From Pyrinomonadaceae bacterium (GTDB lineage Bacteria; Acidobacteriota; Blastocatellia; Pyrinomonadales; Pyrinomonadaceae), in NCBI GenBank assembly GCA_036003745.1, contig DASYSD010000019.1, positions 1,500 to 65,499 of the forward strand: 64,000 nt of DNA, written 5' to 3'. Both the position numbers and the translations under genes were made by a program. Positions 2,828 through 63,842 of the stretch are shown here, one piece after another (positions within the stretch are counted from its first letter, which is position 1; every line of letters starts with the position of its first letter). The notes under the pieces are model-generated. The model was not told where the DNA came from. It saw only the letters and a list, made by a program, of their open reading frames with translations, and ran no database searches.

Positions 2828-2837
2828 TAGTTAATTG

Positions 2838-12684: not shown

Positions 12685-12763
12685 AGTTTTAGATCACTAA
12701 ACCAAACAGATTCACCCTTTGGCGTGTCCCCCCGACCGCGCCTTTATCAATAAGGAGCCCGAA

Positions 12764-18700: not shown

Positions 18701-21700
18701 GAGCTTTCAAACTTTGATGAGGTGACCGTCAGATTCAACCAACCCAATCAGGCCCCGGTGGTTAATGCCGGCCCTGATCAAACAATCGCGCTGAACGGAA
18801 CCGCAAATCTAAACGGTTCTGTCACCGATGACGGTCTCCCAATCAACTCCACGGTCCAAGCAAGCTGGACGATGGTTAGCGGTCCTGGTCTGGTCAACTT
18901 TGACCATTCGGCGTCTGCTGTAACCACCGCCACCTTCACCGAGGCCGGCGTATACATCCTGCGTCTCAGCGCTACTGACTCTCTACTGAGTGCAAGCGAT
19001 GAGACGGTCATCACCGTCACACCACCCAACGGTGCCCCAGTAGTCAACGCAGGCGCGGATCTTGCGGTCACGCTTCCTGGTACAGCGCGATTGAACGGTA
19101 GTGTCACAGACGATGGACTGCCCACTGGCGGCGCGTTGACGGTCGCGTGGTCTCAAGTGAGTGGTCCGGGTACCACTACGTTTGCCAATGCCGCTGCGTC
19201 AGTGACTACTGCGACTTTCAGTGCCGCAGGTACTTACGTCTTGCGCCTGTCAGCCAGTGATTCGGAACTGACGGGTAGTAACGACGTCACCGTGACGGTC
19301 AATCCGGCTGCGCCCAACCAGGCCCCGGTCGTTGAAGCCGGCGCGAATCAGTCCGTTCAATTGAACGCTAATCTGGTTCAGAACGGTGGCAACGATGAAT
19401 CGCTCGTCAACGGCGAGATTCGTGCGTGGACTGAGGCAGTTGGTACGACCTGGACACGTGCGGCTTCGGGCGCGAATGGTTTTCCGGAAAGCGTCAATGG
19501 CGGCTTCTTCTTCTACGCCGGCGAAACTGCTTCGGCTGAACTGCGTCAGGACATCGACGTATCGACGTTTGCGGCCACAATTGCCGCAGGCACACAGGCG
19601 TTCGCGTTGAAGAGCTTCGTGCGCTCAGGTGCGGAGGCGACTCCTGATACGACGCGCGTCATTCTTGAGTATCGCAACGCTGCGAATACAACGATGATCG
19701 CTCGACTTGACTCGGGCGAAGTGTCATCAACCAGCGCGTGGCAATTAATTGAAGACACGCGCATCGTTCCCGCGGGCACTGGTTGGATTCGCATCCGCCT
19801 CATCGCCACGCGTCGCTCCGGAACCATTAACGACGCCTACTTCGATGCGCTTTCCTTCCGACCAGTCACAGGCTCGGGAGTAAAACTCAATGGCGTTGTC
19901 ACCGACGATGGCCTGCCGGCCGGCGGAGCATTGACCGTTACATGGTCCAAGGTCTCCGGTCCGGGTACGGTTACTTTCGCCAATGCAAACGCTGCTTCGA
20001 CGTCCGCAGTCTTCACCGACGCAGGAACCTACGTTCTGCGTTTGACTGCTGATGATTCCGCTTTCACGAACAGTGATGAGCTGACTGTTACAGTTGAAGC
20101 TGCCAACCTCGCGCCGGTCGTAAATGCCGGTGCAGATCAAACAATCACGTTGCCTGCAAATGCATCTTTGAGTGGTAGTGTGACTGATGATGGCAAACCT
20201 GCGGGCGCAAGTGTAACTTCAAGCTGGTCCAAGGTCAGCGGTCCCGGCACGGTCACATTCGCTGACGCGAGTGCTGCAAGCACAACCGCCACGTTCAGCC
20301 TACAGGGCACCTACGTGCTGCGATTGACTGCCGACGACACCGAGTACATCAGCAGCGACACCATTACGGTAACGGTCAATCCTGTTCCACCAAACCAGGC
20401 GCCCACGGTTAATGCCGGCGCAGATCAAGTTATCCAGCCTCCGGCAACAAGCGCCACGTTGGTTGGAACAGTCAACGACGATGGTCTGCCTCCGAGCAGC
20501 TCGCTGACATACTTGTGGACCAAGGTGAGCGGCCCTGGAAACGTCACCTTTAGTAATCCGACGTCGCTGACTACCAACGCCACGTTTAGTGAAGCTGGCG
20601 CCTACATCCTGCGCTTGACGGCAAACGACTCAGCGTTGTCAGGCAGCGATGATGTACGCGTCACGCTCAACGGTACGAACAAAGCACCGGTTGTGAATGC
20701 CGGTGCAGATCAGACGGTGGCCCACCCGACCACTGTTAACCTCAACGGCACTGCGACCGACGATGGCCTGCCGGTTGATAGCACCCTCTCATTTAGCTGG
20801 TCCAAGGTATCAGGTCCAGGCACAGTGACGTTCGGGTCATCTTCAGCCTTCCAGACGACGGCGGCCTTCAGCGTTGCGGGAACCTACGTTCTCCGTCTGA
20901 CAGCGACCGACACGGCGCTCTCAACCTCGGACGACCTCGTCATTACGCAAACTGCACCGCCCACGGCGAACATCAACTCCCCTGCGAGTGGCTCGACCAT
21001 CACTGGGGCAACGAACTTCATCGGGACCGTGAGTGACGGAAGTACCTGGCGTCTCGAATACAGTCTCAACGAAGACGGCGTCGCGCCTGTTTGGACCACC
21101 GTTGCTTCAGGCAATACGCCGGTGAACAACGGTCTGCTGGGCATATTCGATCCGACGGTTCTTTTGAACGGTATCTATACCGTCCGGCTCGTCGCTACCA
21201 ATAGCTCCGGTCAAACCACCACAACTTCGGTTACAGCAGTCGCTGACGGTGAGCAGAAGGTGGGTAACTTCTCACTCTCGTTCCGCGACCTTAGTGTGCC
21301 GGTTGCGGGTATCCCGATTGACATCATCCGCACGTACGACAGCCGCGACAAGCGCGTCGGTGACTTCGGTGTGGGTTGGAACATCGATATCCGTAATGCG
21401 CGACTTCAGGAAAGCACAGTGACTGGTACAGGCTGGGCCACCACGGTCAGCGGCGGTTTTCTGCCGAGCTACTGCGTACAGGCGACACGGCCTCACATCG
21501 TGACCATCACGATGTCAAACAATGAAGTCTTCAAGTTTGAGGTCGCGCTGACTCCACAGTGCGGTCAAGTTTTCCCGCTGCGCGAGACGACCATCGGATT
21601 CCGCGCTCTGCCTGGCACTAACGCCACGCTTACACCCGTCGGTGACGCGACGGTATTTATCAATGCCAGTTACCCAGGCGAAGCCGATCTGCTCGACTAC

Positions 21701-24700
21701 AGCACGTTCGAGCCGAAGGACTTCGATCAGTACCGGCTGACTCTGCCCAGCGGTGACACGATGCTCATCGATCAGCAGGGCGGTATCAGGCAGTTGACCG
21801 ATGCAAACAACAATACGCTGACCATCAACAGCAACGGCATCACACATTCCAGCGGCAAGAGCGTAACGTTCACACGCGATTCTCTGGGCCGCATCACGCA
21901 GATCACTGACCCCGCGGGCGTGTCAATGACTTACTCCTACGACGCGCGCGGCGATCTCATCACATTCAAGGACCGGGAGACTAATCAGAGCACCTACACC
22001 TACAACTCCAGCCACGGCTTGCTGACGATCACAGATCCGACTGGCAACCAACCGCTTCGCAATGAGTACGATGAAAACGGCAGGCTGGTGCGGCAGATCG
22101 ATGCGTTTGGCAAGATCATCAACATCAACGTCAACCCTGCACTCAGGCAGGAGGTTGTTACCGATCGCCTTGGCCACTCCACAATCTTCGAGTACAACGC
22201 GCGCGGACAGGTGGTGCGAACCACCGACGCGAACGGCGGTGTTACCACACGCACGTTCGATAGTCGTGACAACTTGATCAGCGAGACCAACGCTGAGGGC
22301 AAAGTCACCACCTACACGTACGACGCGTTGGACAACCGCCTGAGCGAAACCGATCCGCTCGGCAATATCACACGCTTTACTTACAACAGCCGGCGCCAGT
22401 TGCTAACTGTGACTGACGCTCTGGGTCGTGCCACCACTTGTATCTACGACACGAATGGCAACCTGACGTCCGTCCGCGACACGGCCGGTAACACAACGAC
22501 TGCCACTTACAACTCGCGTGGGCAGAAGGTGACGATGACCGATCCGCTCAACCGGACAACAACCTTCGAGTACGACACTGCAGGCAATCTGACGAAACAG
22601 ACAGATCCTTCCGGCAACGTCGTCACCTTTACTTATGACGCGAATAACAATCGCCTTACTGAGACTGTCGTACGTGGCGGTGGTCTGCCAAACCTCACGA
22701 CGACGTACGAATACGATCGCCTCAATCGTCTCGTTAAGACAACGTTCCCGAACGGCACGACCAACCAGAGTGTGCTGGACAGTGCCGGCCGCCGAACTAA
22801 ATACACGGATGCGCTTGGCAACGAGACGGACTACGGCTACGACGCGGTTGGCCAGCTCACCAGCACAACATATGAAGATGGACTGAGGCAGGAGTTTACC
22901 TATGATGCACAGGGTCGCCGCACGAAGGTCATAGACCGCGCCGGACGAGCCACTGACTACACTTACGACGCGCTGGGACGCATTACCAAGACGACCTTCG
23001 CCGATGGAACGTTCACATCGCTCACCTATAGCAACATCGGACAGATTCTTTCGTCCGCCGACGCTTTAGGAAACCTGACTCGATACGAGTACGACGCTGC
23101 CGGACGACAGACAAAAGTTACCGACCGGCTCGGCAACGTCACCACGTTCACCTATGACGGCAACGGCAATCGCACCTCGATGCTTGATGGAAGAGGGCAA
23201 CTCTACCGTTACGAGTACGACGCTTCTAATCACCAGACGAAGATCATTTACCCGAACGGATCAACACAACTCACCGCCTATAACACCGTCGGACAAGTAA
23301 TCTCAAAGACCGATCAGGCGGGCCGTGTCACCCAGTTCGAGTACGAGGCACAACGAGGCAACATCGCAAAGGTGATCGATGCGCTGAATGGGACTACCAC
23401 CTTTACCTACGATCAACTCGGCAACCTGCTTACACAAACGGACGCCAACAATCACACCACCCGTTATGAGTACGACGCGCTGGGCCGGCGCACGAAGCGA
23501 ACGCTGCCTGTTGGTATGTTCGAAACGTTCGCTTACGACAACGCGGGCCGGCTCACGAGCCGCACGGACTTCAGAGGCAAGACGACTACTTACGCCTACG
23601 ACGTGATGAATCGTCTGATGTCGAAGACGCCCGACGCGAGCCTCGCTGAACCAAACATCACCTACACCTACACGGCAACCGGACAGCGCGCTACGATGAC
23701 GGATGCTTCGGGCCAAACGACTTACACCTACGATTCGCAAGATCGTCTGACCAACAAGCAGACTCCACAGGGAACGCTTGTATACACCTACGATGCTGCC
23801 GGCAATGTTCTTACGCTTCGTTCGTCGAATGCAGACGGGGTGTCAGTCGACTACACGTACGATGCACTTGGCCGGCTGGCTTCAGTCAAAGACAACCGTT
23901 CCGCATCGGCGCTGACCACTTACACCTATGACGGCAACGGCAACCTCGCCAGCACCCTACTGCCGAACGGGGTACAGACCAGCTATACGTACGACACGCT
24001 AAATCGTCTGACGCAACTGGGCACGACGAAAGCCGCGGCCACTGTTGCCAACTACTCGTATACGTTGGCGCCAAACGGTCTGCGACTCTCTGTCGCCGAG
24101 CATGGAGGACGTAACGTCAGCTACACCTACGACGCCTTGAACCGTCTGACTTCGGAGGTAGTGACGGGCGATGCGTCAATCAACGGCTCGATCGGTTACA
24201 GCTACGACGCTGTTGGCAATCGACTCACGCGCACTTCGACGATCGCCGGTGTGCCTGCAACGACTGCGACGTACGACGCTAACGATAGGCTTAACTCGGA
24301 CACTTACGATCCGAACGGAAACACGCTGGCCTCAAACGGCTCGAGCTATACCTACGACTTCGAGAACCGTATGACTGGTGCGGCCGGCGGGACAATCACG
24401 ATCGTCTACGACGGCGATGGCAATCGTGTGGCTAAGACATCCGGCGGAGTAACTACACGTTACCTTGTCGACACCAATAACCACACGGGCCACGCGCAGG
24501 TGGCCGAAGAGTTGCGCGCTGGGCAAGTGGTCCGGCAGTACACCTACGGCCACGATCTCATCAGTGAACGGCAACAAATCAGCGGTCAGTGGCAGACGAG
24601 TTACTACGGCTACGACGGCCAGGGTTCGGTCAGGTATCTCACTAACGCCGCCGGCGCCGTGACGGATACTTACACCTACGACGCCTTCGGAAACCTCACC

Positions 24701-25651
24701 GCGCGTGTAGGAACAACTCCGAACGATTACCTGTTCGCCGGAGAGCAGTTCGATCCGGACCTCAACCTCTACTATCTGCGAGCGAGGTATCTAAACCAGA
24801 GCACCGGACGATTTGTCTCGGCTGACACCTTTGAGGGCTTCAACGAAGACCCGCAGTCGTTGCACAAGTACACCTACGCGCACAACGACCCGGTCAACTT
24901 CGCTGATCCGAGTGGCAATTTCGAGTTCAGCATCGCCGGTCTGACGATGAACATCTCGATCCAGTCGATCCTCAGCGGCATCGCGATCGGTGCGCTTCGT
25001 GGAGCGGTCTTCGGAGCGATTATCGGCGCGGCGGATGCGGCGCTTGCCGGTGACGACATCGTCGATGGGTTCATTAACGGATTAGCGATGGGTGCCTTAC
25101 TTGGACCACTCGCGCGTGTGAAGGTTGTTCTACCGATCCTTCAACTCTTCGGTCTCTACACCGGTATCACGAGTGCGGCTGACTCCTTCGCGGAAGGCAA
25201 CTCCGCGCAGGGCGTCTTCCGGGCCGGCCTTGCCGTCTTCACGGGGCTGGCGCTCTTCCGCACGATCTCCGGGCTTTTGCGAGCGCCAGGGTTCGTGCGT
25301 GCGCCGCAGGACATCGGCAGGGAGTCGAATTATCCGAACCCACCGCCAGCCAACGACGGCGCGGGAACGATCGGCACCAATGCGAACCGGACGGCGTCTC
25401 TTGAACGCGACGTAAGGATCGCTCGCTTCCTGCGTGCGACTGACATTCGCGTGAATCAGGAGCAGGTGAATGCACAAGGCACGAGAGTCGGTGTGAATCG
25501 ACCCGATCTGCAGTTCACGCTTTTTGGCAGGTTGAGAGTCTACATTGAATATGACCCGACCAACCCCGTGGGTAATCGTGGGCCGGGACACAATGCCAGA
25601 ACTCTCTCGAACGACCCGGGCGGGCTCAGTATATTGAAGACCCTCGACTAG
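12764..25651 (+). CDS. Giant (~4295 aa) secreted RHS/YD-repeat polymorphic toxin with 13 PKD-like repeats, beta-propeller regions and a variable C-terminal domain
   Basis: AAGGAG lies 6 nt upstream of the ATG at 12764; the track start at 12719 is probably too early. Sec-type signal ending APPAFA. Repeated [27 protein letters not shown]...[10 protein letters not shown] modules. Many YD repeats (Y.YDA.G.L). RHS core ending [23 protein letters not shown]. Confidence 0.95.
14747..15873 (+). repeat. Coding tandem array: PKD-like repeats 1-4 (~95 aa each)
   Basis: Four consecutive units beginning PP.V(D/N)AGPDQ. Confidence 0.85.
17354..17905 (+). repeat. Coding tandem array: PKD-like repeats 5-6
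   Basis: Units beginning [11 protein letters not shown] and [11 protein letters not shown]. Confidence 0.8.
18464..20950 (+). repeat. Coding tandem array: PKD-like repeats 7-13. Repeat 10 is interrupted by a ~170-aa inserted domain (about 19364-19879).
   Basis: Units beginning [60 protein letters not shown] and [10 protein letters not shown]. Confidence 0.85.
21260..24915 (+). other. RHS/YD-repeat shell plus RHS repeat-associated core domain of the giant protein
   Basis: Runs from [30 protein letters not shown] through dozens of YD repeats to [10 protein letters not shown]...[19 protein letters not shown]...[11 protein letters not shown]. Confidence 0.9.
24916..25651 (+). other. Variable C-terminal (toxin) region: Gly/Ala-rich hydrophobic segment, Pro-rich linker and an ~85-aa terminal module
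   Basis: Lies immediately after the DPSGN core boundary. Contains [25 protein letters not shown]...GLAMGALLG, then [11 protein letters not shown], then [12 protein letters not shown]...NRPDLQF...RVYIEYD. Confidence 0.7.
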
Positions 25652-26628: not shown

Positions 26629-27585
26629 ATGAGTCTCACAAGAACAGCGAGAGCTTTAACCCTTGCGGTCGGCGTTACGCTTTTGGTTACTGCCAATGCG
26701 CAAACCAAATCTGATATTGAACAGGACCGCCTGGTCGGCCCGGTTCAGATTGTAAAAACTGAAGTGGCTGAGTTCACGGCTAAAGATGGCAAGAATGTCG
26801 AGGGCCAGCACACACTTGTGCAAACCACAACTTACGACGCGCGTGGAAATCGACTTAAGCGCGTTGACTACAATCGCGACGGCTCAGTGGCGCAAACGCT
26901 CGTTTACACCTACGACGCCGAAGGCCGGCGCATCGGTTACGAAGATTACACGCCCGGCCTCAGCACCTCGCGCAAACACGTTTATCTTCTCGACTCAAAA
27001 GGCAATCGCGTTGAATACAAGATCATTCAACCGACCGGCTCCGAGGCTGACGAAAAGTATCTCTACAAGTACGACGCAAATGGGAATAAGGTAGCGGAAG
27101 AGCTTTACCACAAAACCTCATTGATCAGTCGGAACGAAAACGCTTATGACGCTCAGGGCAGACTCGTCTCCCAAACCATCTACAACCCTGACGGCTCCAT
27201 CTCGTCGCGAATACAAAATGCGATCGCGGCAGACGGCAAACCAACTGAACGTACCAGGTACGATGGTGACCTTCTCACCTACAAAGTGCGATATAGATAT
27301 GACCAAAAAGGCAAGTTAGTAGAGCTGGAAACCACCGGATCATATGTCGAGACAGATTCCGACTCGGAAGGATACATCACCGGCAAAGTGGTCTATGTAT
27401 ATAAAGGTAAGGATCAGCCGAAAGAAACGTTAGTTTTTAATCCGGACGGTTCATTACGCGAAAAGATTGCAGTTGACTACGACTCACGCGGAAACTGGAC
27501 CAGGAGGACGCACCGGGTCCGTTCCGGTCAGACGGGAAAAGAACTCCCGCAGCAAATCGAGTATCGCACGATAACCTACCACTGA
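26629..27585 (+). CDS. Secreted 318-aa protein made of degenerate YD-like repeats
   Basis: Signal peptide ending TANAQ. Repeats include [66 protein letters not shown] and [13 protein letters not shown]. Confidence 0.8.
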
Positions 27586-37566: not shown

Positions 37567-37603
37567 GTGCTCGCTGGCGAGCACTTGTCGTCAAATAGCG
37601 CAG
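37567..37603 (+). repeat. 37-nt repeat containing the palindrome GTGCTCGC-TG-GCGAGCAC (copy 1)
   Basis: GTGCTCGCTGGCGAGCACTTGTCGTCAAATAGCGCAG, with 4 mismatches to the copy at 38651-38687. Confidence 0.8.
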
Positions 37604-37706
37604 CCTCAAACCCAGGGATCTAAGCAAAATGCGCCATTTCCCCCGGCATATTTATTGCTCAGCCCTTGCTACCACGGTTCAATGTGTCCAGCGTCCAGGA
37701 GTTTCC

Positions 37707-38624
37707 ATGCGAACCAGGCATTGGTTGGAATTCACCTTCCTGTTTCTGCTTTTGACCAACTGCTCTGCAGCACTCGGCCAGAACCAAAAACCTGCATTGA
37801 CGCAAGTTCGCGCGTTGACCAACAACGACGTGATACGGATGGTGGAACGGGGAGAGAAGCCCACCCAGATCATCGGCAGGATTCTCACTTCACACTGTAA
37901 TTTCGACGTTTTTCCGCCTGTTCTTCAGGACTTAAAGAGACGCGGTGTGCCCGACACGGTTTTGGTGGCAATGACGTCGGCCCCGTATGGTCCGCCGTCA
38001 CTGTCTGATGTTGACTCAAAAATCTCGCAATTGGCGTCGGTAGTTCAGCTTCCCGAAGGGATGGTAATCGAACTGGAGACGGTTCGCGCCACTTCTTCGG
38101 ACAATGCGCCAGTGGGAAGTCCGATCACTTTTGTCGCGACGCGCAGAGTCTACGTCGATAACACTTTGATAATTGAGCGAGGCGCAGTCGCAAAGGCTCG
38201 CGTGGTTAAAGTCCAGCGTGCGCGTGGATGGGGACGAGCCGGCATGCTTGCCTGGGAGTTGGAGTACGTCGTTGGGGTTGATGGCACACGGATTCCGGTC
38301 CAGCTTAAGGGTCAACAGATGGGCAAGAGTCGCGCAGCCGCTGTTGCCGGCAGCGCTGTGGCAACGGGCGCGTTGATTTTTCCCTACAGTTCTCCGGTGG
38401 CTTTGATCTGGGGACTCAAGAAGGGCGACGAAGCTGTGCTGCGTGGCAATAAAGTCGTCTCGGTAATCGTAAAAGCAAAAACAGAAATCGCGGGTTTTCA
38501 GCCCCGGCCGGGCGGGACTATCTTTCATGACATGGAAACGGTGAAGGCTAGTACCGCCCCTCTAACGAATACAACTTTTGATCGGGGCAGCGTCAGGTTC
38601 AGCGGCCTCAAGTCAAATCGGTAA
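37707..38624 (+). CDS. Secreted hypothetical protein (305 aa) with an N-terminal LTN..V...G...II...FD....LK..GV...AM module
   Basis: AGGAG RBS before the ATG at 37707. Signal peptide ending CSAALGQ. The module LTNNDVIRMVERGEKPTQIIGRILTSHCNFDVFPPVLQDLKRRGVPDTVLVAM is shared with the 59372 protein. Confidence 0.7.
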   Translation: MRTRHWLEFTFLFLLLTNCSAALGQNQKPALTQVRALTNNDVIRMVERGEKPTQIIGRILTSHCNFDVFPPVLQDLKRRGVPDTVLVAMTSAPYGPPSLSDVDSKISQLASVVQLPEGMVIELETVRATSSDNAPVGSPITFVATRRVYVDNTLIIERGAVAKARVVKVQRARGWGRAGMLAWELEYVVGVDGTRIPVQLKGQQMGKSRAAAVAGSAVATGALIFPYSSPVALIWGLKKGDEAVLRGNKVVSVIVKAKTEIAGFQPRPGGTIFHDMETVKASTAPLTNTTFDRGSVRFSGLKSNR

Positions 38625-38650: not shown

Positions 38651-38687
38651 GTGCTCGCTGGCGCGCAGTTGTCGCCAAACAGCGCAG
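38651..38687 (+). repeat. 37-nt repeat (copy 2, palindrome degenerate)
   Basis: GTGCTCGCTGGCGCGCAGTTGTCGCCAAACAGCGCAG. Confidence 0.8.
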
Positions 38688-38786
38688 GGACGAGACGATA
38701 ATTCTTCCGAAAACGCTTATTCTTCTGAGGCACATTGGTTGCTGACTCTTGATGCTTTCGTAAGCGTTTAATCCGGATTTGGCCTA

Positions 38787-40001
38787 TTGAGCACCATGAC
38801 ATCTCCAGCCCCCATTTACGATTCACAACCGGTAATTGACCGCGACTCAATTGAGCTGTCGGTAATCATGCCCTGTCTCAACGAGGCGGAAACTCTCGCC
38901 ACGTGCATCAAGAAGGCGCAGAGATGGATGACCAAAAACGACGTGTCGGGTGAGGTCATAATCGCCGACAACGGCAGCACCGACGGCTCACAGAGAATCG
39001 CCCAGGTAATGGGAGCTCGACTGGTCGACGTACCTGAAAGAGGCTACGGCGCAGCATTGCGTGCGGGAATTGAAGCAGCACGCGGCACTTATGTGATCAT
39101 GGGTGACGCCGACGACAGCTACAACTTTGCCAACCTTGGGCCATTTCTCAACAAGCTGCGTAGTGGTTATGACCTTGTTATGGGAAACCGGTTTGCCGGT
39201 GGGATTGAACCGGGAGCAATGCCTCCGCTGCACAAATACCTTGGCAATCCGGTGTTGACCGGCATTGGTCGGCTTCTGTTTCGCAGTCCTTGCCGTGACT
39301 TCCATTGCGGACTGCGTGGTTTTTCAAAGAAGGCGGCATTAAAGATGGACCTGCGCACGCCGGGCATGGAGTTCGCCAGTGAGATGGTTGTGAAGGCGAC
39401 CTTGAATAATTTGAGGATTATCGAGGTTCCGACGACTCTCTCCCCCGACGGCCGCAGCCGCGAGCCCCACCTGCGTAGTTGGAGAGACGGTTGGCGTCAC
39501 CTGCGATTTCTTTTGCTCTACAGCCCGCGCTGGCTTTTCTTCTATCCGGGGGCTTTGCTTATGCTGGTGGGATTAGCTGTCGGCCTGTGGCTGTTGCCTG
39601 GTCCGCGTGCCCTAGGCAACATCACACTCGACGTTCACACGCTACTCTACGCTGCAGCAGCCGTTATCACCGGTTTTCAGGCGGTTAATTTTGCCGTGTT
39701 CACAAAGATTTTTGGCGTGACCTCGGGCTTGCTTCCACCCGATGCGAAGCTTGAGAAGGCTTTTAAGTATGTCACGCTTGAATCGGGTCTCATTGTGGGA
39801 CTGGTGTTGTTTTTCGCGGGTTTGGGCCTGAGCGTTTTTGCGGTGACCAATTGGGAAGCGCATTCGTTTGGCTCCCTCGATCCAACAAAAATTCTTCGCC
39901 TGGTAATACCCGCAGTGACCGCAATGATGCTGGGAAGTGAAATCGTGCTGTCGAGTTTCTTTCTGAGCGTGTTGGGGTTGACAAAGCGTCGAATGAATTA
40001 G
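38787..40001 (+). CDS. Family 2 glycosyltransferase with a C-terminal membrane domain (polyprenyl-phosphate sugar synthase type, ArnC/GtrB/DPM1-like)
   Basis: LSVIMPCLNEAETL, IIADNGSTDGS and MGDADDSY (DxD) motifs, followed by about four TM segments. TTG start at 38787; an ATG at 38796 is the alternative. Confidence 0.88.
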   Translation: MSTMTSPAPIYDSQPVIDRDSIELSVIMPCLNEAETLATCIKKAQRWMTKNDVSGEVIIADNGSTDGSQRIAQVMGARLVDVPERGYGAALRAGIEAARGTYVIMGDADDSYNFANLGPFLNKLRSGYDLVMGNRFAGGIEPGAMPPLHKYLGNPVLTGIGRLLFRSPCRDFHCGLRGFSKKAALKMDLRTPGMEFASEMVVKATLNNLRIIEVPTTLSPDGRSREPHLRSWRDGWRHLRFLLLYSPRWLFFYPGALLMLVGLAVGLWLLPGPRALGNITLDVHTLLYAAAAVITGFQAVNFAVFTKIFGVTSGLLPPDAKLEKAFKYVTLESGLIVGLVLFFAGLGLSVFAVTNWEAHSFGSLDPTKILRLVIPAVTAMMLGSEIVLSSFFLSVLGLTKRRMN

Positions 40002-40031
40002 TACCTGCTGGCATCAGCAACGAGATTTGTT

Positions 40032-41504
40032 ATGGCGACCACACCGAAAAAGAGAATAGGCATCTTCGTCATAGCCTACAACGCTGTAAACAAACTCGAC
40101 TGGACACTTGATCGCATTCCAGAAGAAGTTTGGGAAAAGGTCGAGGAGGTTTTTCTCTTCGATGATTGCTCGACTGATAATACCTACTATGCTGCGATCG
40201 GTTATAAGCATGTAAGGAAACTGGAAAAGCTGACCATACATCGCAACAAACGCAACCTTCGATATGGTGGTAATCAAAAGCAAGGATATCAATACGCTAT
40301 TGCGCGAGACTTGGACATAGTTGTCATGCTCCACGCGGATGGTCAATATGCTCCAGAGTCTTTGCCGAAACTACTGGAACCTCTCGAGCATGACGAAGCC
40401 GACATGGTGTTTGGATCGCGCATGGCGGAAGGAGGCGCGCCGCTCCAGGGTGGAATGCCTCTATACAAATTCATTGGCAACAAAATCCTAACGTGGCTGG
40501 AGAACAAGATCACCGGAATGAAGTTGTCGGAATTTCATTCGGGGTATCGTATCTATTCGTGTGCGGCACTGAAACGGATACCATTCTTGTTGAATTCGAA
40601 CGAGTGGCACTTCGACACCGATATCCTTATTCAATTTCATGAAGCTGGCATGCGAGTAGTAGAGGAGCCGATTCCCACCTATTATGGCGATGAAATCTGT
40701 TACGTAAATGGGATCGCTTATGCGTTTAATTGTTTGAGATCGGCGCTAACGTATCGCTTACATAAAGCGAGATTACTCCACGTGCAAAAATATGAAATAA
40801 AACCCAGCCAGTATGTTTACAAGCAGACCGACCCCTACAGCAGTCATGCACAGATTCTCAATTGGGTAAAGAAACAGCGGCCAGAAGAAGTGTTAGAGGT
40901 AGGAACAGCGTCGGGTTACCTTACTGCGGAGATGGTGAAACTCGGTTGTAGAGTCACTGGCGTCGAGCAGAATGTCGAAATGGCCAGCCTTGCGGAACAG
41001 TATTGCAACAGGATGTTGATTGGAGACATCGAGTCACTAGAACTTAATAGTCTCGGCGAATACGACGCAATAATTCTTGGAGATATTCTTGAACACGTGC
41101 GCAACCCGCGAGCCGTCCTGCAAAAGGTCAGTAAACACCTTCGGCCCGGCGGCAGAGTCTTGATCTCACTTCCTAATGTTGCAAACATCTGGGTGCGGCT
41201 TAACCTGCTGCTGGGCCGATTCAACTACAGCCGAGTTGGCATTCTCGATGAATCGCACCTGCGGTTTTTTACTCTGCATACCAGTAAGAAACTGGCCCAC
41301 GATTCCGGCCTGGATGTGATTGGGATAAATACTACACCGATTCCACTACCTTTGCTGCTTCCAGCAACACAGAGAGGTCGATCTCTCAGTTTTCTTCACG
41401 GTTTAAATTGGGGGCTGGCCAGACTCAGGAAAACTCTGTTTGGCTATCAATTCATCCTCGTTTGCCGAGACCCCAATAATCTGGAAGAGGCCAAAGCCCC
41501 ATAA
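40032..41504 (+). CDS. Bifunctional family 2 glycosyltransferase / class I SAM-dependent methyltransferase
   Basis: The N-terminal half has IGIFVIAYNA...FLFDDCSTDNT...MLHADGQY. The C-terminal half has VLEVGTASGYLT...ILGDILEHV...LRPGGRVLISLPN. Confidence 0.9.
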   Translation: MATTPKKRIGIFVIAYNAVNKLDWTLDRIPEEVWEKVEEVFLFDDCSTDNTYYAAIGYKHVRKLEKLTIHRNKRNLRYGGNQKQGYQYAIARDLDIVVMLHADGQYAPESLPKLLEPLEHDEADMVFGSRMAEGGAPLQGGMPLYKFIGNKILTWLENKITGMKLSEFHSGYRIYSCAALKRIPFLLNSNEWHFDTDILIQFHEAGMRVVEEPIPTYYGDEICYVNGIAYAFNCLRSALTYRLHKARLLHVQKYEIKPSQYVYKQTDPYSSHAQILNWVKKQRPEEVLEVGTASGYLTAEMVKLGCRVTGVEQNVEMASLAEQYCNRMLIGDIESLELNSLGEYDAIILGDILEHVRNPRAVLQKVSKHLRPGGRVLISLPNVANIWVRLNLLLGRFNYSRVGILDESHLRFFTLHTSKKLAHDSGLDVIGINTTPIPLPLLLPATQRGRSLSFLHGLNWGLARLRKTLFGYQFILVCRDPNNLEEAKAP

Positions 41505-41509
41505 TCAGT

Positions 41510-42766
41510 GTGTTCTTTAAGCGGAAAGGAATTGCTCGACCGCCAGCTGCCCGCCTGGGTCAAAGATTTGCCCTGCTTTGGGAAAGACCCGTAGTAAGCC
41601 TGGTACTAGCGCTCACGATCTACACATTATTTGGTGTGGGCCACAGCTCAACTCTGGAAGCGTCTGCCGTACCGTACTACAACTATCTCGCCGATGCCTT
41701 CCTCCACGGTCAACTACATCTCAGATTGATTCCCAAATCAACCCTAGATTTAAGCTATTTCAATGGTCATTTTTATCTCTATTGGGCTCCCCTGCCAGCC
41801 GTACTCCTAATGCCATTCGTGGCCCTCTTTGGAGTGGGTTTTAGCGACGTGGCATTCACATTACTTGTGGCTGCTGCGAATGTTTTCCTCGTTGCCATTT
41901 TGCTAAGGAAACTGTGTGTTGTTCGGATTGCAAGGGTCTCAAGAGTCAAACGGGGAATTTTGGTGTTGTTTTTTTCTCTTGGCACTGTACACCTAACACT
42001 TGCTCCGTTTGGGCGCGTCTGGTCCACGGGACAACTCGTAGGATTCCTCTGCGTCATTCTCGCTTACTTAGCCAGCATTAGCGTTCACTCGCGTTGGGCC
42101 TTCGCGTTTACGGGATTAGCCATCGCGGGTGCAGTGCTCACGCGAAGTCACCTTATCTTCGCCGCTCTCTGGCCGTGTATCTATCTTTGGAAGCAATACT
42201 CTTCTGCAGGAGTGAGGAAGAAGGTTGGATTGTTTCTCTTAACTCTGTTGCCGATCCTCGCCGCTATAGCGCTGCTAGGAATCTACAATTGGTTGAGATT
42301 CGGAAATATACTCGATAATGGTATTCCCCATCATGCAATGCATGCCGCATTTTCCAAATCCTACCAACAGTATGGCGCATTCAACATCCACTATGTACCG
42401 ATCAATCTGTTTTACCAATACATCGCTTATCCTCTACCCATTCGACCGAGTAGCTATTACGGAGGAAGCCTGTTTTTACTGAGCCCTGTCTTCGTTGCCG
42501 CATTTTGGTCCCCTGGCGGGAAATCTGCTTGGATTCGCTGGGGCCTACTCGCCAGCATCGTGTTAGTAGGGATTCCTATTGCCCTTTTGATGGGGACAGG
42601 ATGGGTTCAGTTTGGGCCACGCTATACGCTCGATTTCACAGTGCCATTACTCATGCTTACGGCAATCGGAAGTCGTAAATGGTCTACCTCGACATTGTCC
42701 TTTTTTACACTGGTCTCTATTGTCCAATACTTCGTTGGAACTTTGAGCTTGATGGTTAGTCTCTGA
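41510..42766 (+). CDS. Polytopic membrane protein, GT-C-like (ArnT/PMT-like) putative glycosyltransferase
   Basis: GTG start 5 nt after the previous stop. About 11 hydrophobic segments. The first periplasmic loop has YYNYLADAFLHGQLHL. The family assignment is tentative. Confidence 0.65.
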   Translation: MFFKRKGIARPPAARLGQRFALLWERPVVSLVLALTIYTLFGVGHSSTLEASAVPYYNYLADAFLHGQLHLRLIPKSTLDLSYFNGHFYLYWAPLPAVLLMPFVALFGVGFSDVAFTLLVAAANVFLVAILLRKLCVVRIARVSRVKRGILVLFFSLGTVHLTLAPFGRVWSTGQLVGFLCVILAYLASISVHSRWAFAFTGLAIAGAVLTRSHLIFAALWPCIYLWKQYSSAGVRKKVGLFLLTLLPILAAIALLGIYNWLRFGNILDNGIPHHAMHAAFSKSYQQYGAFNIHYVPINLFYQYIAYPLPIRPSSYYGGSLFLLSPVFVAAFWSPGGKSAWIRWGLLASIVLVGIPIALLMGTGWVQFGPRYTLDFTVPLLMLTAIGSRKWSTSTLSFFTLVSIVQYFVGTLSLMVSL

Positions 42767-44457: not shown

Positions 44458-44620
44458 TAAACTAGTCCTCTTCAGGGGGAGTACTCGAGCGTTGGAGCTC
44501 GCTTTTATAGTATTAGGACTCGACTAGTCAATACATTTCCCACTAATTTCAGAACGGCACCGCTTCGCTTATTCCCGTTCGCGGTCCAAACGGGGAGAAT
44601 CCAGCATTCTTCTGCCGCAA

Positions 44621-44638
44621 CTGCTCGCAAGCGAGCAG
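44621..44638. promoter_or_regulatory. Perfect palindrome CTGCTCGC-AA-GCGAGCAG: candidate bEBP upstream activating site, or a REP-like motif
   Basis: Centred ~140 nt upstream of the flp-1 -24/-12 element. The same motif occurs at the same spacing upstream of flp-2. Confidence 0.4.
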
Positions 44639-44768
44639 TGTTGAACGTGAATAACATGGTGGCAATCCGATGTGTTTGCCTCATCGATCAGGAAACTTCA
44701 TTTTTTACACCAATCAAACATTGAGATTCATTCAATCACGTACGGCGAAACATGGTCCCAGCCCGTCA

Positions 44769-44783
44769 CGGCACGAGCATTGC
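44769..44783 (+). promoter_or_regulatory. Sigma-54 (-24/-12) promoter candidate for flp-1
   Basis: CGGCACGAGCATTGC matches the GGCACG-N4-TTGC consensus with GG-N10-GC spacing. Confidence 0.55.
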
Positions 44784-44796
44784 GGAAACGGACCCT

Positions 44797-44860
44797 GCAC
44801 TCGAAATGTTGCCGTGATCGGCAGGAGCGATCACTCAGGTTTCCTGAGATGACGCCTTCA
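44797..44860 (+). promoter_or_regulatory. Conserved structured 5' leader block of flp-1
   Basis: 64 nt with 4 substitutions and 1 indel relative to 45456-45520. Hairpins TGCCG-TGAT-CGGCA and CTCAGG-TTT-CCTGAG. Confidence 0.5.
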
Positions 44861-44942
44861 CTTCCGGTGCAATCCTTACCCGTACAGTCTTTAAAAACGC
44901 CGGGTAAAAACAAAAAAAATAAAATCCTAAGGAGAATAAATC

Positions 44943-45113
44943 ATGATTAAGAGATTTCTGAACGACGAGTCGGGTATAGAAACAATGGAATACGCGATCA
45001 TCGCCGCCATCGTCGCTGCTGTTGCGATCCTGGTCTATGGTGCAGGCTGGGGACAAGCACTCAGAGACAAGCTATTGGGTGCGGCGAACGTTAGCACGAA
45101 CGTTGGCCTGTAA
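44943..45113 (+). CDS. flp: Flp-family type IVb pilin (56 aa), paralog 1
   Basis: AAGGAG RBS. MIKRFLNDESG/IETMEYAIIAAIVAAVAILVYGAG... carries the Flp G/xxxxEY processing motif and a hydrophobic core. Not in the ORF track because it is under 60 aa. Confidence 0.9.
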   Translation: MIKRFLNDESGIETMEYAIIAAIVAAVAILVYGAGWGQALRDKLLGAANVSTNVGL

Positions 45114-45124
45114 ACCATCTCAGT

Positions 45125-45175
45125 CTTCTGTCAACGTGGGCGCCCATTTCGCAAACGTTGACAGAAGCGTTTTCC
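45125..45175 (+). terminator. Intrinsic terminator after flp-1
   Basis: 13-bp perfect stem CTTCTGTCAACGT (45125-45137) / ACGTTGACAGAAG (45155-45167), followed by CGTTTTCC. Confidence 0.7.
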
Positions 45176-45282
45176 ATCCGTCCTCCGCAAAACTCATCTC
45201 CCAACTTATTTGTCCAACAAACCGCCTACGCGGCCAGGCTTGGCAATCATTTTATCTACCGTCGGGCAGTGTTCTGCCGCAA

Positions 45283-45300
45283 CTGCTCGCAGGCGAGCAC
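45283..45300. promoter_or_regulatory. Palindrome CTGCTCGC-AG-GCGAGCAC: candidate upstream activating site, or a REP-like motif (flp-2 copy)
   Basis: Centred ~138 nt upstream of the flp-2 -24/-12 element. The flanks (TTCTGCCGCAA ... TGTTGAAC) are also shared with the flp-1 copy. Confidence 0.4.
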
Positions 45301-45428
45301 TGTTGAACCGGAAAAAACCAATAGAAGGTTGCAATGTGTGTCGGTAACAAGCCTCCAAACCTGTCATTTACTGCGGAAAAACTCGAACCTGATGCAGCCG
45401 AATTTATTTTGGACCAAGGCCACAGAAT

Positions 45429-45443
45429 TGGCACAACCCTTGC
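45429..45443 (+). promoter_or_regulatory. Sigma-54 (-24/-12) promoter candidate for flp-2
   Basis: TGGCACAACCCTTGC is an exact TGGCAC-N5-TTGC. Confidence 0.6.
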
Positions 45444-45455
45444 CATTCACAGTAC

Positions 45456-45520
45456 GCACTCGAAATGTTGCCGTTATCGGCAGGAGCGGTCGTTCAGGTC
45501 TTCCTGAGATGACGCCTTCA
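45456..45520 (+). promoter_or_regulatory. Conserved structured 5' leader block of flp-2
   Basis: Paralogous to 44797-44860. Hairpins TGCCG-TTAT-CGGCA and TCAGG-TCTT-CCTGA. Confidence 0.5.
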
Positions 45521-45590
45521 GTTCTGTATTGCCCGTACGGTCCATGGGACATCGGGTGTAAACCAAATTAACCCTTCTAAGGAGATCAAA

Positions 45591-45761
45591 ATGATTAAGA
45601 AGTTTCTGAACGACGAGACAGGTATCGAAACGATGGAGTACGCAATCATCGCGGCCATCGTAGCAGCCGTTGCCATCCTGGTATATGGCGCGGGTTGGGG
45701 CCAAGCCCTCCGAAACAAACTGCTGGGCGCAGCCAACGTAAGCACAAACGTGGGCCTTTAA
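45591..45761 (+). CDS. flp: Flp-family type IVb pilin (56 aa), paralog 2
   Basis: AAGGAG RBS. MIKKFLNDETG/IETMEYAIIAAIVAAVAILVYGAGWGQALRNKLLGAANVSTNVGL. Not in the ORF track. Confidence 0.9.
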   Translation: MIKKFLNDETGIETMEYAIIAAIVAAVAILVYGAGWGQALRNKLLGAANVSTNVGL

Positions 45762-45780: not shown

Positions 45781-45814
45781 GACGAGTTTGGCTGCATCGT
45801 CAACCAAACTCGTC
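45781..45814 (+). terminator. Hairpin after flp-2: a probable attenuator or partial terminator ahead of the assembly genes
   Basis: 11-bp stem GACGAGTTTGG (45781-45791) / CCAAACTCGTC (45804-45814), followed by ATCTCTCTTGT. Confidence 0.5.
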
Positions 45815-61475: not shown

Positions 61476-63140
61476 TTGGAACACGGAACGACAGACAGCA
61501 TATTCTCGACTACCGGTGTCTCGTCCGATAGGTGGATCGACCTGCGGATGATTTCGACGATGCGGCTGGTACTTGCCGCATCGGCGCTATTCATCAACAT
61601 GCTCCAACCCACCGAAGCAAGCGCGCTTTCCGGAGCGAACATAGCGCTCGGTTTTTATACTGTTTACGGTCTGGTGGTCTATGTACTGTCGATCAGACGC
61701 AGCGCCCTGCTCCCGCAAAGAATTCTGCATTGGCTCGATCTGCTTTGGTATGTACCTCTGATCGCCCTGAGTAGCGGCACTAATAGTATCTTCTTTTTCT
61801 TTCTCTTCTTTTCCATCCTCGTGGCCTCATTTGGGTGGGGTTTTACCGAAGGGATACGGATCACGCTCGTTGCCGCCTCTCTTTTTACGATCGTGGGCGT
61901 GGTAACTCGGACGGACAATACGTTTGAGTTGGAGAGATTTCTGCTGCGGCCAACTTCTCTTCTTATTTTGGGCTACATGATTGCTTACTGGGGTGGCTAC
62001 GAAGTAAAGCTAAAGCGCCGCCTTGGACTACTGAAAGATATCTCCGCCTTCTCGGATCCGCGCTTTGGGTTAGACCATACTGTGAGCCGGATGATGGACA
62101 GCCTCCGTCGTTTCTATGCAGCCGATTCGTGTCTTCTCGTGGTCCAGGTTCCGGGAGGAAGCTTCCAATTGCGGAAAGTCAGTGCTACCACAGCAGGCGA
62201 GTGCATCGTGAAAACTGTACCTGATGAAATGGCCGCTATCTTGCTGTCGCCATCACCTCCTGCAGCTCTGATCTTTCATAAACGGAAGTCAAAGAGGCTG
62301 CTCTACGACGTTCGAACAGGGCTATCCTCTCACGATGTGTCAGCAACTTTCGCGACGATTGCAAACACGTTGGAAGCAAACGAGTTCATGTCGTTGCCGC
62401 TCTATTACCAGGGCAGGCCGGTGGGGCGCTTCTATCTCGTCGACTCTTCGCAGCCTCTCGACGATTCAGATATTGCATTTGTGCTCCAATTGATTGAGCA
62501 CGTCATTCCGGCCCTCGACAACATCCGCCTCGTTGATCGGCTCGCATCAGAAGCAGCAGAATACGAACGCCAACGAATCGCGCGTGATATACACGACGGC
62601 GTAATTCAGCCTTACATCGGACTTCAATTAGGCCTTGCCGCTATTCGTCAGAAAATGGAGCGTGGAGATACCGACGTTGCCCGCGACGTTAAAGAGCTTA
62701 CGGCAATGACGATGACAGAAATTGAAGAACTGCGTCATTACATTCGCGGACTTAAAGCGAGCGAGCGCCACGACACTATGCTCTTGCCGGCAATTCGACG
62801 CTTTGCCTCAAAGTTTTCGGCCGCCACGGGAATTGCGGTCGACGTGAAGGCTACGAACCACATCGGAATCAAAGACCGGCTGGCGGCGGAGATCTTCCAG
62901 ATGGTTACCGAGGGTTTCAGCAATATCAGGCGGCACACTCATTCACCTCGAGCCGAGGCGGAATTGGACTACAGTAAAGGTGTCTTTGTTTTAAACATTA
63001 AGAATTCTAACGACAATGGAACTCGTGCGGCTTTTCATCCTCGTTCGCTCGCTGAGCGAGCCGTCGCGCTCGGAGGTAAGCTCGAGGTCTATACAGACAA
63101 TATGAATCAGACAGTTGTAAGTATCCACATTCCCTTATAA
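61476..63140 (+). CDS. Membrane sensor histidine kinase (HisKA_3 / NarX-type) with a GAF-like middle domain
   Basis: Several N-terminal TM segments. H-box RQRIARDIHDGVIQ. HATPase_c region with N- and G-box-like motifs. The start (TTG 61476 versus ATG 61548) is uncertain. Confidence 0.85.
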   Translation: MEHGTTDSIFSTTGVSSDRWIDLRMISTMRLVLAASALFINMLQPTEASALSGANIALGFYTVYGLVVYVLSIRRSALLPQRILHWLDLLWYVPLIALSSGTNSIFFFFLFFSILVASFGWGFTEGIRITLVAASLFTIVGVVTRTDNTFELERFLLRPTSLLILGYMIAYWGGYEVKLKRRLGLLKDISAFSDPRFGLDHTVSRMMDSLRRFYAADSCLLVVQVPGGSFQLRKVSATTAGECIVKTVPDEMAAILLSPSPPAALIFHKRKSKRLLYDVRTGLSSHDVSATFATIANTLEANEFMSLPLYYQGRPVGRFYLVDSSQPLDDSDIAFVLQLIEHVIPALDNIRLVDRLASEAAEYERQRIARDIHDGVIQPYIGLQLGLAAIRQKMERGDTDVARDVKELTAMTMTEIEELRHYIRGLKASERHDTMLLPAIRRFASKFSAATGIAVDVKATNHIGIKDRLAAEIFQMVTEGFSNIRRHTHSPRAEAELDYSKGVFVLNIKNSNDNGTRAAFHPRSLAERAVALGGKLEVYTDNMNQTVVSIHIPL

Positions 63141-63158
63141 CATTCCAATTTCGAATAA

Positions 63159-63842
63159 ATGTCAGCCCCCGATCCAACCTCATCCCCAATTCGAATTCTG
63201 ATAGTCGACGACCACCTTGTGGTGCGCGCCGGACTCCACATGCTGATAGATAATCATCCGGGAATGAGCGTGGTGGCGATGGCGAGCAATCGCTCTGAGG
63301 CTCTTGAACTTGCCGCCAGTACTTCACCGAATTTGATACTTCTGGATCTGGATCTGGGAGGTGAAAACGGGTTGGATTTCATCACGCAACTGCGCGAAAC
63401 AACACCGAGCGCTCGAATCCTGGTCCTAACCGGTGTGCGCGATACAGATGCGCACCGCCAGGCCGTACAACTCGGCGCGATGGGAGTAGTCCTTAAGGAG
63501 CACGCCCCGGATGTGCTGATCAAGGCTATCGAGAAGGTCCATGCCGGAGAGATTTGGCTCGACCGTCCGACGCTGGGTCGAATACTGCGCGAGATGTCAC
63601 TAAGGGACGAAAAAGAGATTGATCCAGAGGTGGCCAAGATAGGGTCTCTGACTCAACGAGAACGAGAGGTCGTGGCACTTATCGCTGAGGGACTCAAAAA
63701 TAAACAGATCGCCCAACGACTGTTCATCAGTGAGACTACAGTTACACACCACCTCAGTTCCATCTACTCAAAGCTGGGCGTTTCAGACAGACTCGAATTA
63801 GTAATCTACGCGTTCGCTCATAAGCTCGCCGGCAAGCCCTAA
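63159..63842 (+). CDS. Response regulator, NarL/LuxR family
   Basis: Receiver domain (ILIVDDH...LILLDLDL) and a LuxR HTH (LTQREREVVALIAEGLKNKQIAQRLFISETTVTHHLSSIYSKLGV). Confidence 0.93.
   Translation: MSAPDPTSSPIRILIVDDHLVVRAGLHMLIDNHPGMSVVAMASNRSEALELAASTSPNLILLDLDLGGENGLDFITQLRETTPSARILVLTGVRDTDAHRQAVQLGAMGVVLKEHAPDVLIKAIEKVHAGEIWLDRPTLGRILREMSLRDEKEIDPEVAKIGSLTQREREVVALIAEGLKNKQIAQRLFISETTVTHHLSSIYSKLGVSDRLELVIYAFAHKLAGKP

Follow-up and report, generated by a model that had tools for sequence, protein, structure and literature searches.

What controls two Flp pilin genes with nearly identical products that stand in tandem ahead of a complete tad locus, each with the same set of elements upstream? 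The genes, flp1 (44943-45113) and flp2 (45591-45761), lie on the plus strand of a 64,000-nucleotide (nt) stretch of a Pyrinomonadaceae genome (contig DASYSD010000019.1, positions 1,500 to 65,499), referred to here as the window. Many bacteria attach to surfaces and form biofilms by means of Tad/Flp pili, whose regulation is, to our knowledge, known in few cultured species only. A sequence-only reading of the window had pointed out a palindrome, a sigma-54 -24/-12 element, and a conserved hairpin leader before each gene. We consider it probable that these elements serve control at two levels, enhancer-driven sigma-54 transcription and post-transcriptional recognition of the leader, with each flp gene forming its own transcription unit.

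Both genes code for 56-amino-acid (aa) proteins that are 95% identical. Flp1 has the characteristics of a type IVc Flp/Fap prepilin in its domain (PF04964 at 32.3 bits, with a cut-off of 32.2), size, processing motif (SG/IETMEY; G/IETMEY in Flp2), and tad/cpa neighbors. The two genes differ in 29 codons, 26 of them synonymously (26 third-codon positions). Of 28 fourfold-degenerate sites, no more than 7 are identical. Since these sites are saturated, the duplication must be old. Upstream, pairwise alignment and a repeat finder revealed three islands of identity separated by unalignable stretches, with 63 of 70 positions identical in the leader and 35 of 38 in the palindrome block, versus 69 of 121 in the interval from palindrome to promoter. 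Direct reading found the elements where they had been placed: the palindromes CTGCTCGC-AA-GCGAGCAG (44621-44638) and CTGCTCGC-AG-GCGAGCAC (45283-45300), the -24/-12 elements CGGCACGAGCATTGC (44769-44783) and TGGCACAACCCTTGC (45429-45443), and a block (44797-44860 versus 45456-45520) with four substitutions and one indel that contains both hairpins. The leader is also, as had been claimed, more conserved than the synonymous sites. Two boundaries had to be moved. The core coordinates of the palindromes stand, but the conserved blocks are wider, at about 44610-44657 and 45272-45316, and the 64/65-nt leader block, correct as far as it goes, truly ends at about 44870, since a 12-bp closing helix encloses both hairpins.

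The same arrangement recurs in related loci. A search with the Flp1 protein returned 100 homologs with 64 to 96% identity, nearly all metagenomic and three from NCBI assemblies; among the genome contigs covered, a scan with the same protein found a single distant locus, from Hyphomicrobiaceae. Leaders were collected by ten look-ups of homolog-encoding contigs and one metagenome scan with the DNA pattern GGCAGGA-N19-25-GATGAYGCCTKCA, which was anchored on unpaired leader bases and left the 5' strand and loop of the first hairpin (P2) and the whole second hairpin (P3) unconstrained. Together they yielded about 100 genuine leaders and about 40 chance matches. The complete module, consisting of the dyad, a -24/-12 element (GGCA[CT]-N5-TTGC), and the leader 12 to 14 nt past the -12 GC, precedes flp in about 100 metagenome loci. 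An flp open reading frame (ORF) follows every genuine leader after 64 to 110 nt, and these ORFs belong to two Flp subfamilies (...ESG[IM]ET[ML]EYA... and ...ETGAELAEYAV...). Four related loci carry extra flp paralogs without a leader (flp1 and flp2 of L002/L008, flp1 of L024, and flp1 of L025), which have sigma-54-like promoters of their own, some with a dyad; in these loci, the leader-bearing gene is the last flp before the assembly operon.

The two promoters, CGGCACGAGCATTGCG (44769-44784) and TGGCACAACCCTTGCC (45429-45444), both on the plus strand, have GG and GC 10 nt apart within TGGCAC-N5-TTGCW, which confirms the GG-N10-GC spacing and the fit to the sigma-54 consensus described before. 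Within the window alone, GGCAC-N5-TTGC has three matches versus 0.7 expected, a count that is reached by 7 of 100 shuffles and is not significant; hence, the weight rests on the comparison with other loci. Upstream sequence of 60 nt or more was present for 99 leaders, of which 96 have a GG[CT]A[CT]-N5-[CT]TGC element that ends 34 to 38 nt (rarely 41 to 42) before GGCAGGA, and it is the GG/GC spacing and the position that are conserved across loci, while the flanks are not. The first base pair of the closing helix (P1) of the metagenome leaders falls 12 to 14 nt past the -12 GC, where a sigma-54 transcript is expected to start. No sigma-70-like promoter was found between 44200 and 46000 (1.3 expected). 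The -24/-12 elements thus behave as sigma-54 promoters, as had been proposed, and from their sequence we predict that flp depends on RpoN and that transcription starts at P1.

The conserved palindrome blocks (flanks of the first, TTCTGCCGCAA ... TGTTGAACGTGAATAACA) have the features of upstream activator sequences (UAS). The dyad CTGCTCG-N4-CGAGCAG, allowing up to two mismatches, was present in 71 of the 71 promoter-bearing loci with at least 330 nt of upstream sequence. Across this family, invariant half-sites surround central bases that vary freely, and conservation extends into the flanks (consensus GTTcTGCc.CAAcTGCTCGC..GCGAGCAGTg). The distances from the dyad center to the -24 GG cluster at 62, 105, 116, 129, 140, 152, and 164 nt. 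They fit a period of 11.3 to 11.4 bp best, and this fit was equaled by only 1 of 5,000 random sets. This periodicity is the pattern expected of a face-of-helix constraint in DNA looping, and the enhancer of an AAA+ activator characteristically lies upstream of a sigma-54 promoter, usually 80 to 200 bp away, on a fixed helical face. The comparison therefore supports the view that the palindrome acts as an enhancer for a sigma-54 activator. E. coli-type IHF consensus sites between enhancer and promoter were not enriched (1 in 70 versus 0.6 expected).

Strong dyads occur only four times in the window, and a sigma-54-like promoter follows each of them. The two that are not linked to flp have two mismatches over 18 nt, with the core TGCTCGC-NN-GCGAGCA intact or one base off. 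The first (37567-37659, plus strand) consists of the UAS GTGCTCGCTGGCGAGCAC (37567-37584) and the promoter CGGCATATTTATTGCT (37644-37659), with 69 nt from dyad center to GG and no leader, and precedes a gene (37707-38624) for a 305-aa protein of unknown family with a signal-peptide-like N terminus. The other (38651-38743, plus strand), with UAS GTGCTCGCTGGCGCGCAG (38651-38668) and promoter AGGCACATTGGTTGCT (38728-38743) at the same distance of 69 nt, precedes an operon (38796 to 42766) coding for a GT2 glycosyltransferase, a GT2-methyltransferase fusion, and a 418-aa membrane protein. The same combination of dyad and promoter stands ahead of a GT2 glycosyltransferase in L025. The shared sites define a putative small cell-surface regulon, and they suggest that Flp pili are coregulated with a glycosylation or exopolysaccharide function. 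The leader is absent from the non-flp members.

Which protein would act at these sites? The best candidate is encoded at 2835-3959 on the plus strand (374 aa). Pfam models detected the domains of a sigma-54 enhancer-binding protein, PF00158 (Sigma54_activat, E=1.4e-69), AAA_lid_14, and HTH_8 (E=1.9e-13), that is, an AAA+ sigma-54 interaction domain and a Fis-type helix-turn-helix (HTH), with neither a sensory nor a receiver domain at the N terminus. The GAFTGA loop is present as the variant GTFTGA, and no NCBIfam equivalog reaches its cut-off. In five loci (L151, L051, L101, and L025/L026), orthologs with 67 to 90% identity are found close to leader-bearing flp genes, 0.4 to 4.2 kb on the upstream side, and it is this synteny that singles out the protein, which would activate flp by binding the dyad. 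PilR, which had been mentioned for its classical role at type IVa pilins, does not suit as a model of the activator, since the candidate has no receiver domain.

The leader is about 75 nt long. In leader 1 (44797-44870, plus strand), the 12-bp helix P1 (44797-44808 with 44859-44870) encloses the hairpin P2 (44810-44823), the junction J2/3 (GGA, 44824-44826), and the long hairpin P3 (44827-44855, with its apical stem at 44834-44848). Its minimum free energy (MFE) fold has a z of -3.1, and it scores 93.8 bits with our covariance model. Leader 2 (45456-45530, plus strand), with the P1 5' strand at 45456-45467, P2 at 45469-45482, and P3 at 45486-45515, scores 65.2 bits. Among 80 leaders aligned to the covariance model, compensatory double changes were found at 9 of the 12 pairs of P1, with up to four pair types per position. 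The whole structure has 134 compensatory cells, a value reached by none of 500 shuffles (0/500) and far above the 11 to 52 of slid controls. RNAalifold on a MAFFT alignment missed P1, whose strands had been aligned by sequence and not by register; P1 was recovered with a register anchored on the conserved core and the covariance model. Together with the conservation in about 100 loci, this helix, which the sequence-only reading had overlooked, supports selection on the leader as RNA. Mutual information over all column pairs was dominated by clade structure and gave no tertiary contact. Outside the core motif, a candidate second hairpin with a GUGCGGA loop follows P1 in 21 of 77 leaders. A divergent leader was seen on the reverse strand of L102 (10666-11115), where the first of two flp genes has a dyad, the sigma-54-like promoter TGGTATAACTCTTGCC, and a leader that keeps P1 and is missing P2 and the 5' strand of P3; it could be either a decayed copy or a distinct variant.

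Combining sequence anatomy, conservation, P1 covariation, activator synteny, and helical phasing, we propose that at the first level RNA polymerase with sigma-54 would bind the GG-N10-GC element and be activated by DNA looping from the 18-bp dyad about 140 bp upstream, the activator being the receiver-less AAA+/HTH_8 protein of 2835-3959, with flp belonging to a small regulon together with the secreted-protein gene and the glycosyltransferase operon. At the second level, the transcript would start at the first base of the leader, and a trans-acting factor, be it a protein or a small ligand, would recognize the folded RNA in a sequence-specific manner and tune the stability or the translation of the main pilin mRNA. 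Sequence-specific recognition in trans is what we infer from a P1 that drifts by compensatory change around P2, P3, and junctions that are frozen. The binding of the activator to DNA and any function of the leader RNA are deductions from comparative sequence analysis.

Several observations weigh against this proposal. The rpoN gene is not in the 64-kb window; that the genome encodes RpoN is implied by its gene for a sigma-54 activator. The activator gene lies 41 kb from flp in the window and is absent from the 4 to 8 kb of upstream flank present in many loci. Neither a dyad nor a -24/-12 element was found upstream of five activator genes, that of the window included, and autoregulation was consequently rejected. 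The local 3' strand of P1 in leader 2 (45519-45530) is degenerate; in its MFE fold, 45456-45463 pairs instead with 45551-45558, and leader 2 may use this more distal partner. We found no terminator after P1 and no other expression platform of the kind that a riboswitch has. The Shine-Dalgarno sequences (AAGGAG at 44929-44934 for flp1 and at 45579-45584 for flp2, plus strand) are located 60 to 90 nt past the leader, behind an A/C-rich spacer, and have a mean predicted unpaired probability of about 0.56; therefore, sequestration by the leader is not obvious.

The two hairpins also count against the proposal. Their stems are preserved and their loops differ between the two window copies, as had been noticed, but neither P2 (UGCCG/CGGCA) nor P3 (GCG-UCA-CUCAGG / CCUGRG-UGA-CGC) shows any compensatory change across the 80 leaders. 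They are not covarying elements, and their pairing relies on thermodynamics and wobble-compatible substitutions. The commonest of these are G-C to G-U and U-A to U-G exchanges in either direction, at six stem pairs, with seven U-to-C cells at pair 48/74 as the one recurrent exception. In total, P2 and P3 contain 66 G.U versus 11 A.C cells, which speaks for sense-strand RNA and not for duplex DNA. As many as 31 alignment columns are invariant, junction bases included, although those under GGCAGGA and GATGAYGCCTKCA are so by construction, since the metagenome pattern fixed them, and divergent leaders are under-sampled for the same reason.

Among other explanations, the one that survives best is that the leader is a small-molecule riboswitch, for instance for a second messenger of surface attachment, with P1, P2, P3, and the junctions as the aptamer. 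We regard it as possible, with the odds clearly against it. On binding its ligand, the RNA would switch between the two-hairpin fold and, as the alternative, an H-type pseudoknot formed by two pairings, GUGAUC in the loop of P2 with GAUCAC in P3 and CAGGA(A) in the junction with (U)UCCUG. The architecture is riboswitch-like, a variable P1 around a highly conserved multi-helix core at the extreme 5' end of the mRNA, and a second possible partner for the invariant segments would explain stems that do not covary. The pseudoknot is suggested by the last nucleotide of the P3 loop, U in 67 of 80 leaders as the alternative helix requires, by one A-U to G-C double change that fits the pairing of P2 loop and P3 (L042/L064/L080), and by a GGGAAG:CUUCCU helix, similar to that of CAGGAA, kept along with P1 in the divergent leader of L102. 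This amounts to one evolutionary event plus invariant bases. Stems of riboswitches normally covary, and here P1 does so strongly but P2 and P3 have no double changes. Furthermore, neither a terminator nor a platform sequestering the Shine-Dalgarno sequence was found, there is no similarity to Rfam families, both c-di-GMP classes included, and the sequence names no ligand. Taken more broadly, with the leader either forming the aptamer of a riboswitch class not seen before or serving a dedicated RNA-binding regulator as its docking site, and with the RNA toggling between the two hairpins and the pseudoknot, the idea stays similarly tentative. If true, the toggle would link production of the major Flp pilin to a cellular signal, for example a second messenger of surface attachment, in a host setting of abundant, uncultured soil bacteria.

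A somewhat less plausible alternative is that the leader is a mere stabilizer, a paired 5' end that shields an abundant pilin mRNA from 5'-end-dependent decay without sensing anything. A paired 5' end would follow from a P1 that begins at the predicted +1, pilin mRNAs need to be abundant, and the missing expression platform agrees with this role. However, a stabilizer needs structure and not sequence, while the leader combines a P1 of up to four pair types per position with its invariant columns, unpaired junctions among them, and other flp paralogs with the same type of promoter do without it.

It is improbable that P2 (TGCCG-N4-CGGCA) and P3 (CTCAGG-N3-CCTGAG) are instead DNA operators of dimeric repressors just past the start site. 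Both are indeed DNA palindromes devoid of compensatory change, but with their commonest substitutions the RNA stays paired, by way of G.U, and the DNA dyads lose their symmetry (U.G at pair 54/68 in 42 of 80 leaders and G.U at pair 27/33 in 15 of 80). The excess of G.U over A.C is a strand asymmetry unexpected for duplex DNA, the two hairpins are enclosed by a helix that covaries as RNA, and the nonpalindromic junctions are equally invariant. More improbable still is that the conserved GATGACGCCT is the start of a regulatory upstream ORF (MTP...). Its ATG is conserved in the leader and opens ORFs of 33 and 20 codons in the window, but across loci the ORFs vary from 5 to 98 codons, the peptide is conserved only at residues fixed by the search pattern, no Shine-Dalgarno sequence lies at a suitable distance, and the codons downstream of the ATG are the covarying 3' strand of P1, which led us to reject it. 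Finally, recent tandem duplication or gene conversion, which the position of flp1 and flp2 as tandem paralogs 648 nt apart might suggest, is refuted by fourfold sites that are saturated next to a conserved leader and palindrome, by the unalignable sequence between the islands, and by the recurrence of the same islands in about 100 unrelated metagenome loci.

With regard to two-level control, its sigma-54 part is not without precedent. In Desulfovibrio vulgaris Hildenborough, the sigma-54-dependent response regulator DVU2114 targets Flp-type pilin genes and the adjacent tad operon, its regulon being DORF39640-DVU2129 (Rajeev 2011, PMC3333781; Kazakov 2015, PMC4641369). The earlier view that this kind of control is undescribed at Tad/Flp loci is thus incorrect, and the novelty is limited to the leader RNA. 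As in the window, a sigma-54 enhancer-binding protein there has a site upstream of Flp-class pilins that are followed by cpa/tad genes; in contrast, DVU2114 has a receiver domain, its binding motif is, as far as reported, unrelated to ours, and no structured leader RNA has been described for it. The receiver-less activator would therefore appear to be the distinguishing feature of the sigma-54 part here. A paper on Pectobacterium flp/tad was checked as a further precedent and is not one.

Sigma-54 control with PilS/PilR is classical for the type IVa pilin gene pilA in Pseudomonas, Myxococcus, and Geobacter (PMC3333781). The flp module resembles it in that an activator site lies upstream of the -24/-12 promoter of a major pilin gene, but there the pilin is of type IVa, PilR has a receiver domain and is phosphorylated by PilS, and no conserved leader RNA is known. 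In its layout, an AAA+ sigma-54 interaction domain and a C-terminal HTH only, the 2835-3959 protein is closer to PspF and HrpR-HrpS, enhancer-binding proteins that have no N-terminal regulatory domain. Nevertheless, it reaches only 256 and 207 bits with the NCBIfam PspF models (cut-offs of 444 and 529), and no PspA- or HrpV-like antagonist was identified near it.

For the leader, the closest analogy is pilA1 of Clostridioides difficile, which is preceded by a c-di-GMP-II riboswitch that controls a terminator. In both cases, a structured 5' leader would give a pilin gene a second, post-initiation layer, but the flp leader has no terminator and no Rfam similarity to c-di-GMP-II even at E<=10. 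Rfam 15 gave no match at the gathering score in the whole window and, at E<=10, a single irrelevant match and nothing relevant between 44560 and 45600; a text search of the literature revealed no description of an flp riboswitch or flp leader motif.

The module offers a defined enhancer sequence, a candidate dedicated activator, and a small putative regulon shared by Flp pili and a glycosyltransferase operon. In about 100 loci of soil and rhizosphere metagenomes, the main pilin gene is marked by the leader, an uncataloged structured RNA. Its short length, covarying closing helix, and frozen core make it tractable for the discovery of a ligand or protein partner, and its covariance model can be used to annotate flp regulation in metagenomes.

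Downstream of the pilin genes, two further hairpins deserve attention. Directly after the flp1 stop codon is a hairpin with 18-bp arms (45125-45167, plus strand, inverted repeat I2), followed by GCGTTTTCC, which is likely a terminator or a 3' stabilizer; a simple terminator scan did not flag it. A second one (45781-45814, plus strand, inverted repeat I4), between flp2 and the prepilin peptidase gene (45862), is possibly an attenuator of read-through into the tad operon. The tad locus of Aggregatibacter actinomycetemcomitans has a termination cascade and a sigma-70 promoter and is not known to have a 5' leader motif. Similarly, the hairpins of the window could limit read-through to the assembly genes and, as terminators or attenuators, may set the ratio of pilin to assembly machinery, although they have no strong U tracts.

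The tad locus 3' of flp2 is complete, comprising tadV (45862), cpaB (46441), the secretin gene cpaC (47365), tadG/E/F, tadZ, tadA, tadB, and tadC, plus genes for a TPR protein, an AAA-like protein, an SLT transglycosylase, and a VWA protein. It ends with a GAF-HisKA_3 histidine kinase and a NarL/LuxR-type response regulator (61476-63842), a pair reminiscent of the PprA/PprB control of tad in Pseudomonas. On the other side, a small ORF divergent from flp1 (44457-44371, minus strand) has a good Shine-Dalgarno sequence and codes for a 28-aa hydrophobic peptide (MQLNWMTITAIIVIVALVGFLFMRRRSG); at the equivalent position, L011 and L023 have a 51-aa ORF upstream of a gene for a membrane protein of 489 to 507 aa.

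Genes related to flp were also found in phage-like contigs (L010, L019-L022, and L031), with products 73 to 88% identical to Flp1 and neighbors such as an integrase, a CI-type repressor, a tRNA 3' end, and large tail-like proteins. These genes have sigma-54-like promoters 64 to 74 nt upstream and a related dyad (GTGCGCGC-TG-GCGCTCAC), without the leader. In viral contigs, the metagenome pattern had four matches, none of which was accepted as a leader by the covariance model. L020 and L021 represent opposite ends of a single 67-kb JGI contig, and the same flp pair at both suggests that the contig is a circular element. Elsewhere in the window, a single ORF codes for a 4,310-aa protein (12719-25651) and is followed by the gene for an RHS-repeat protein (26629-27585).

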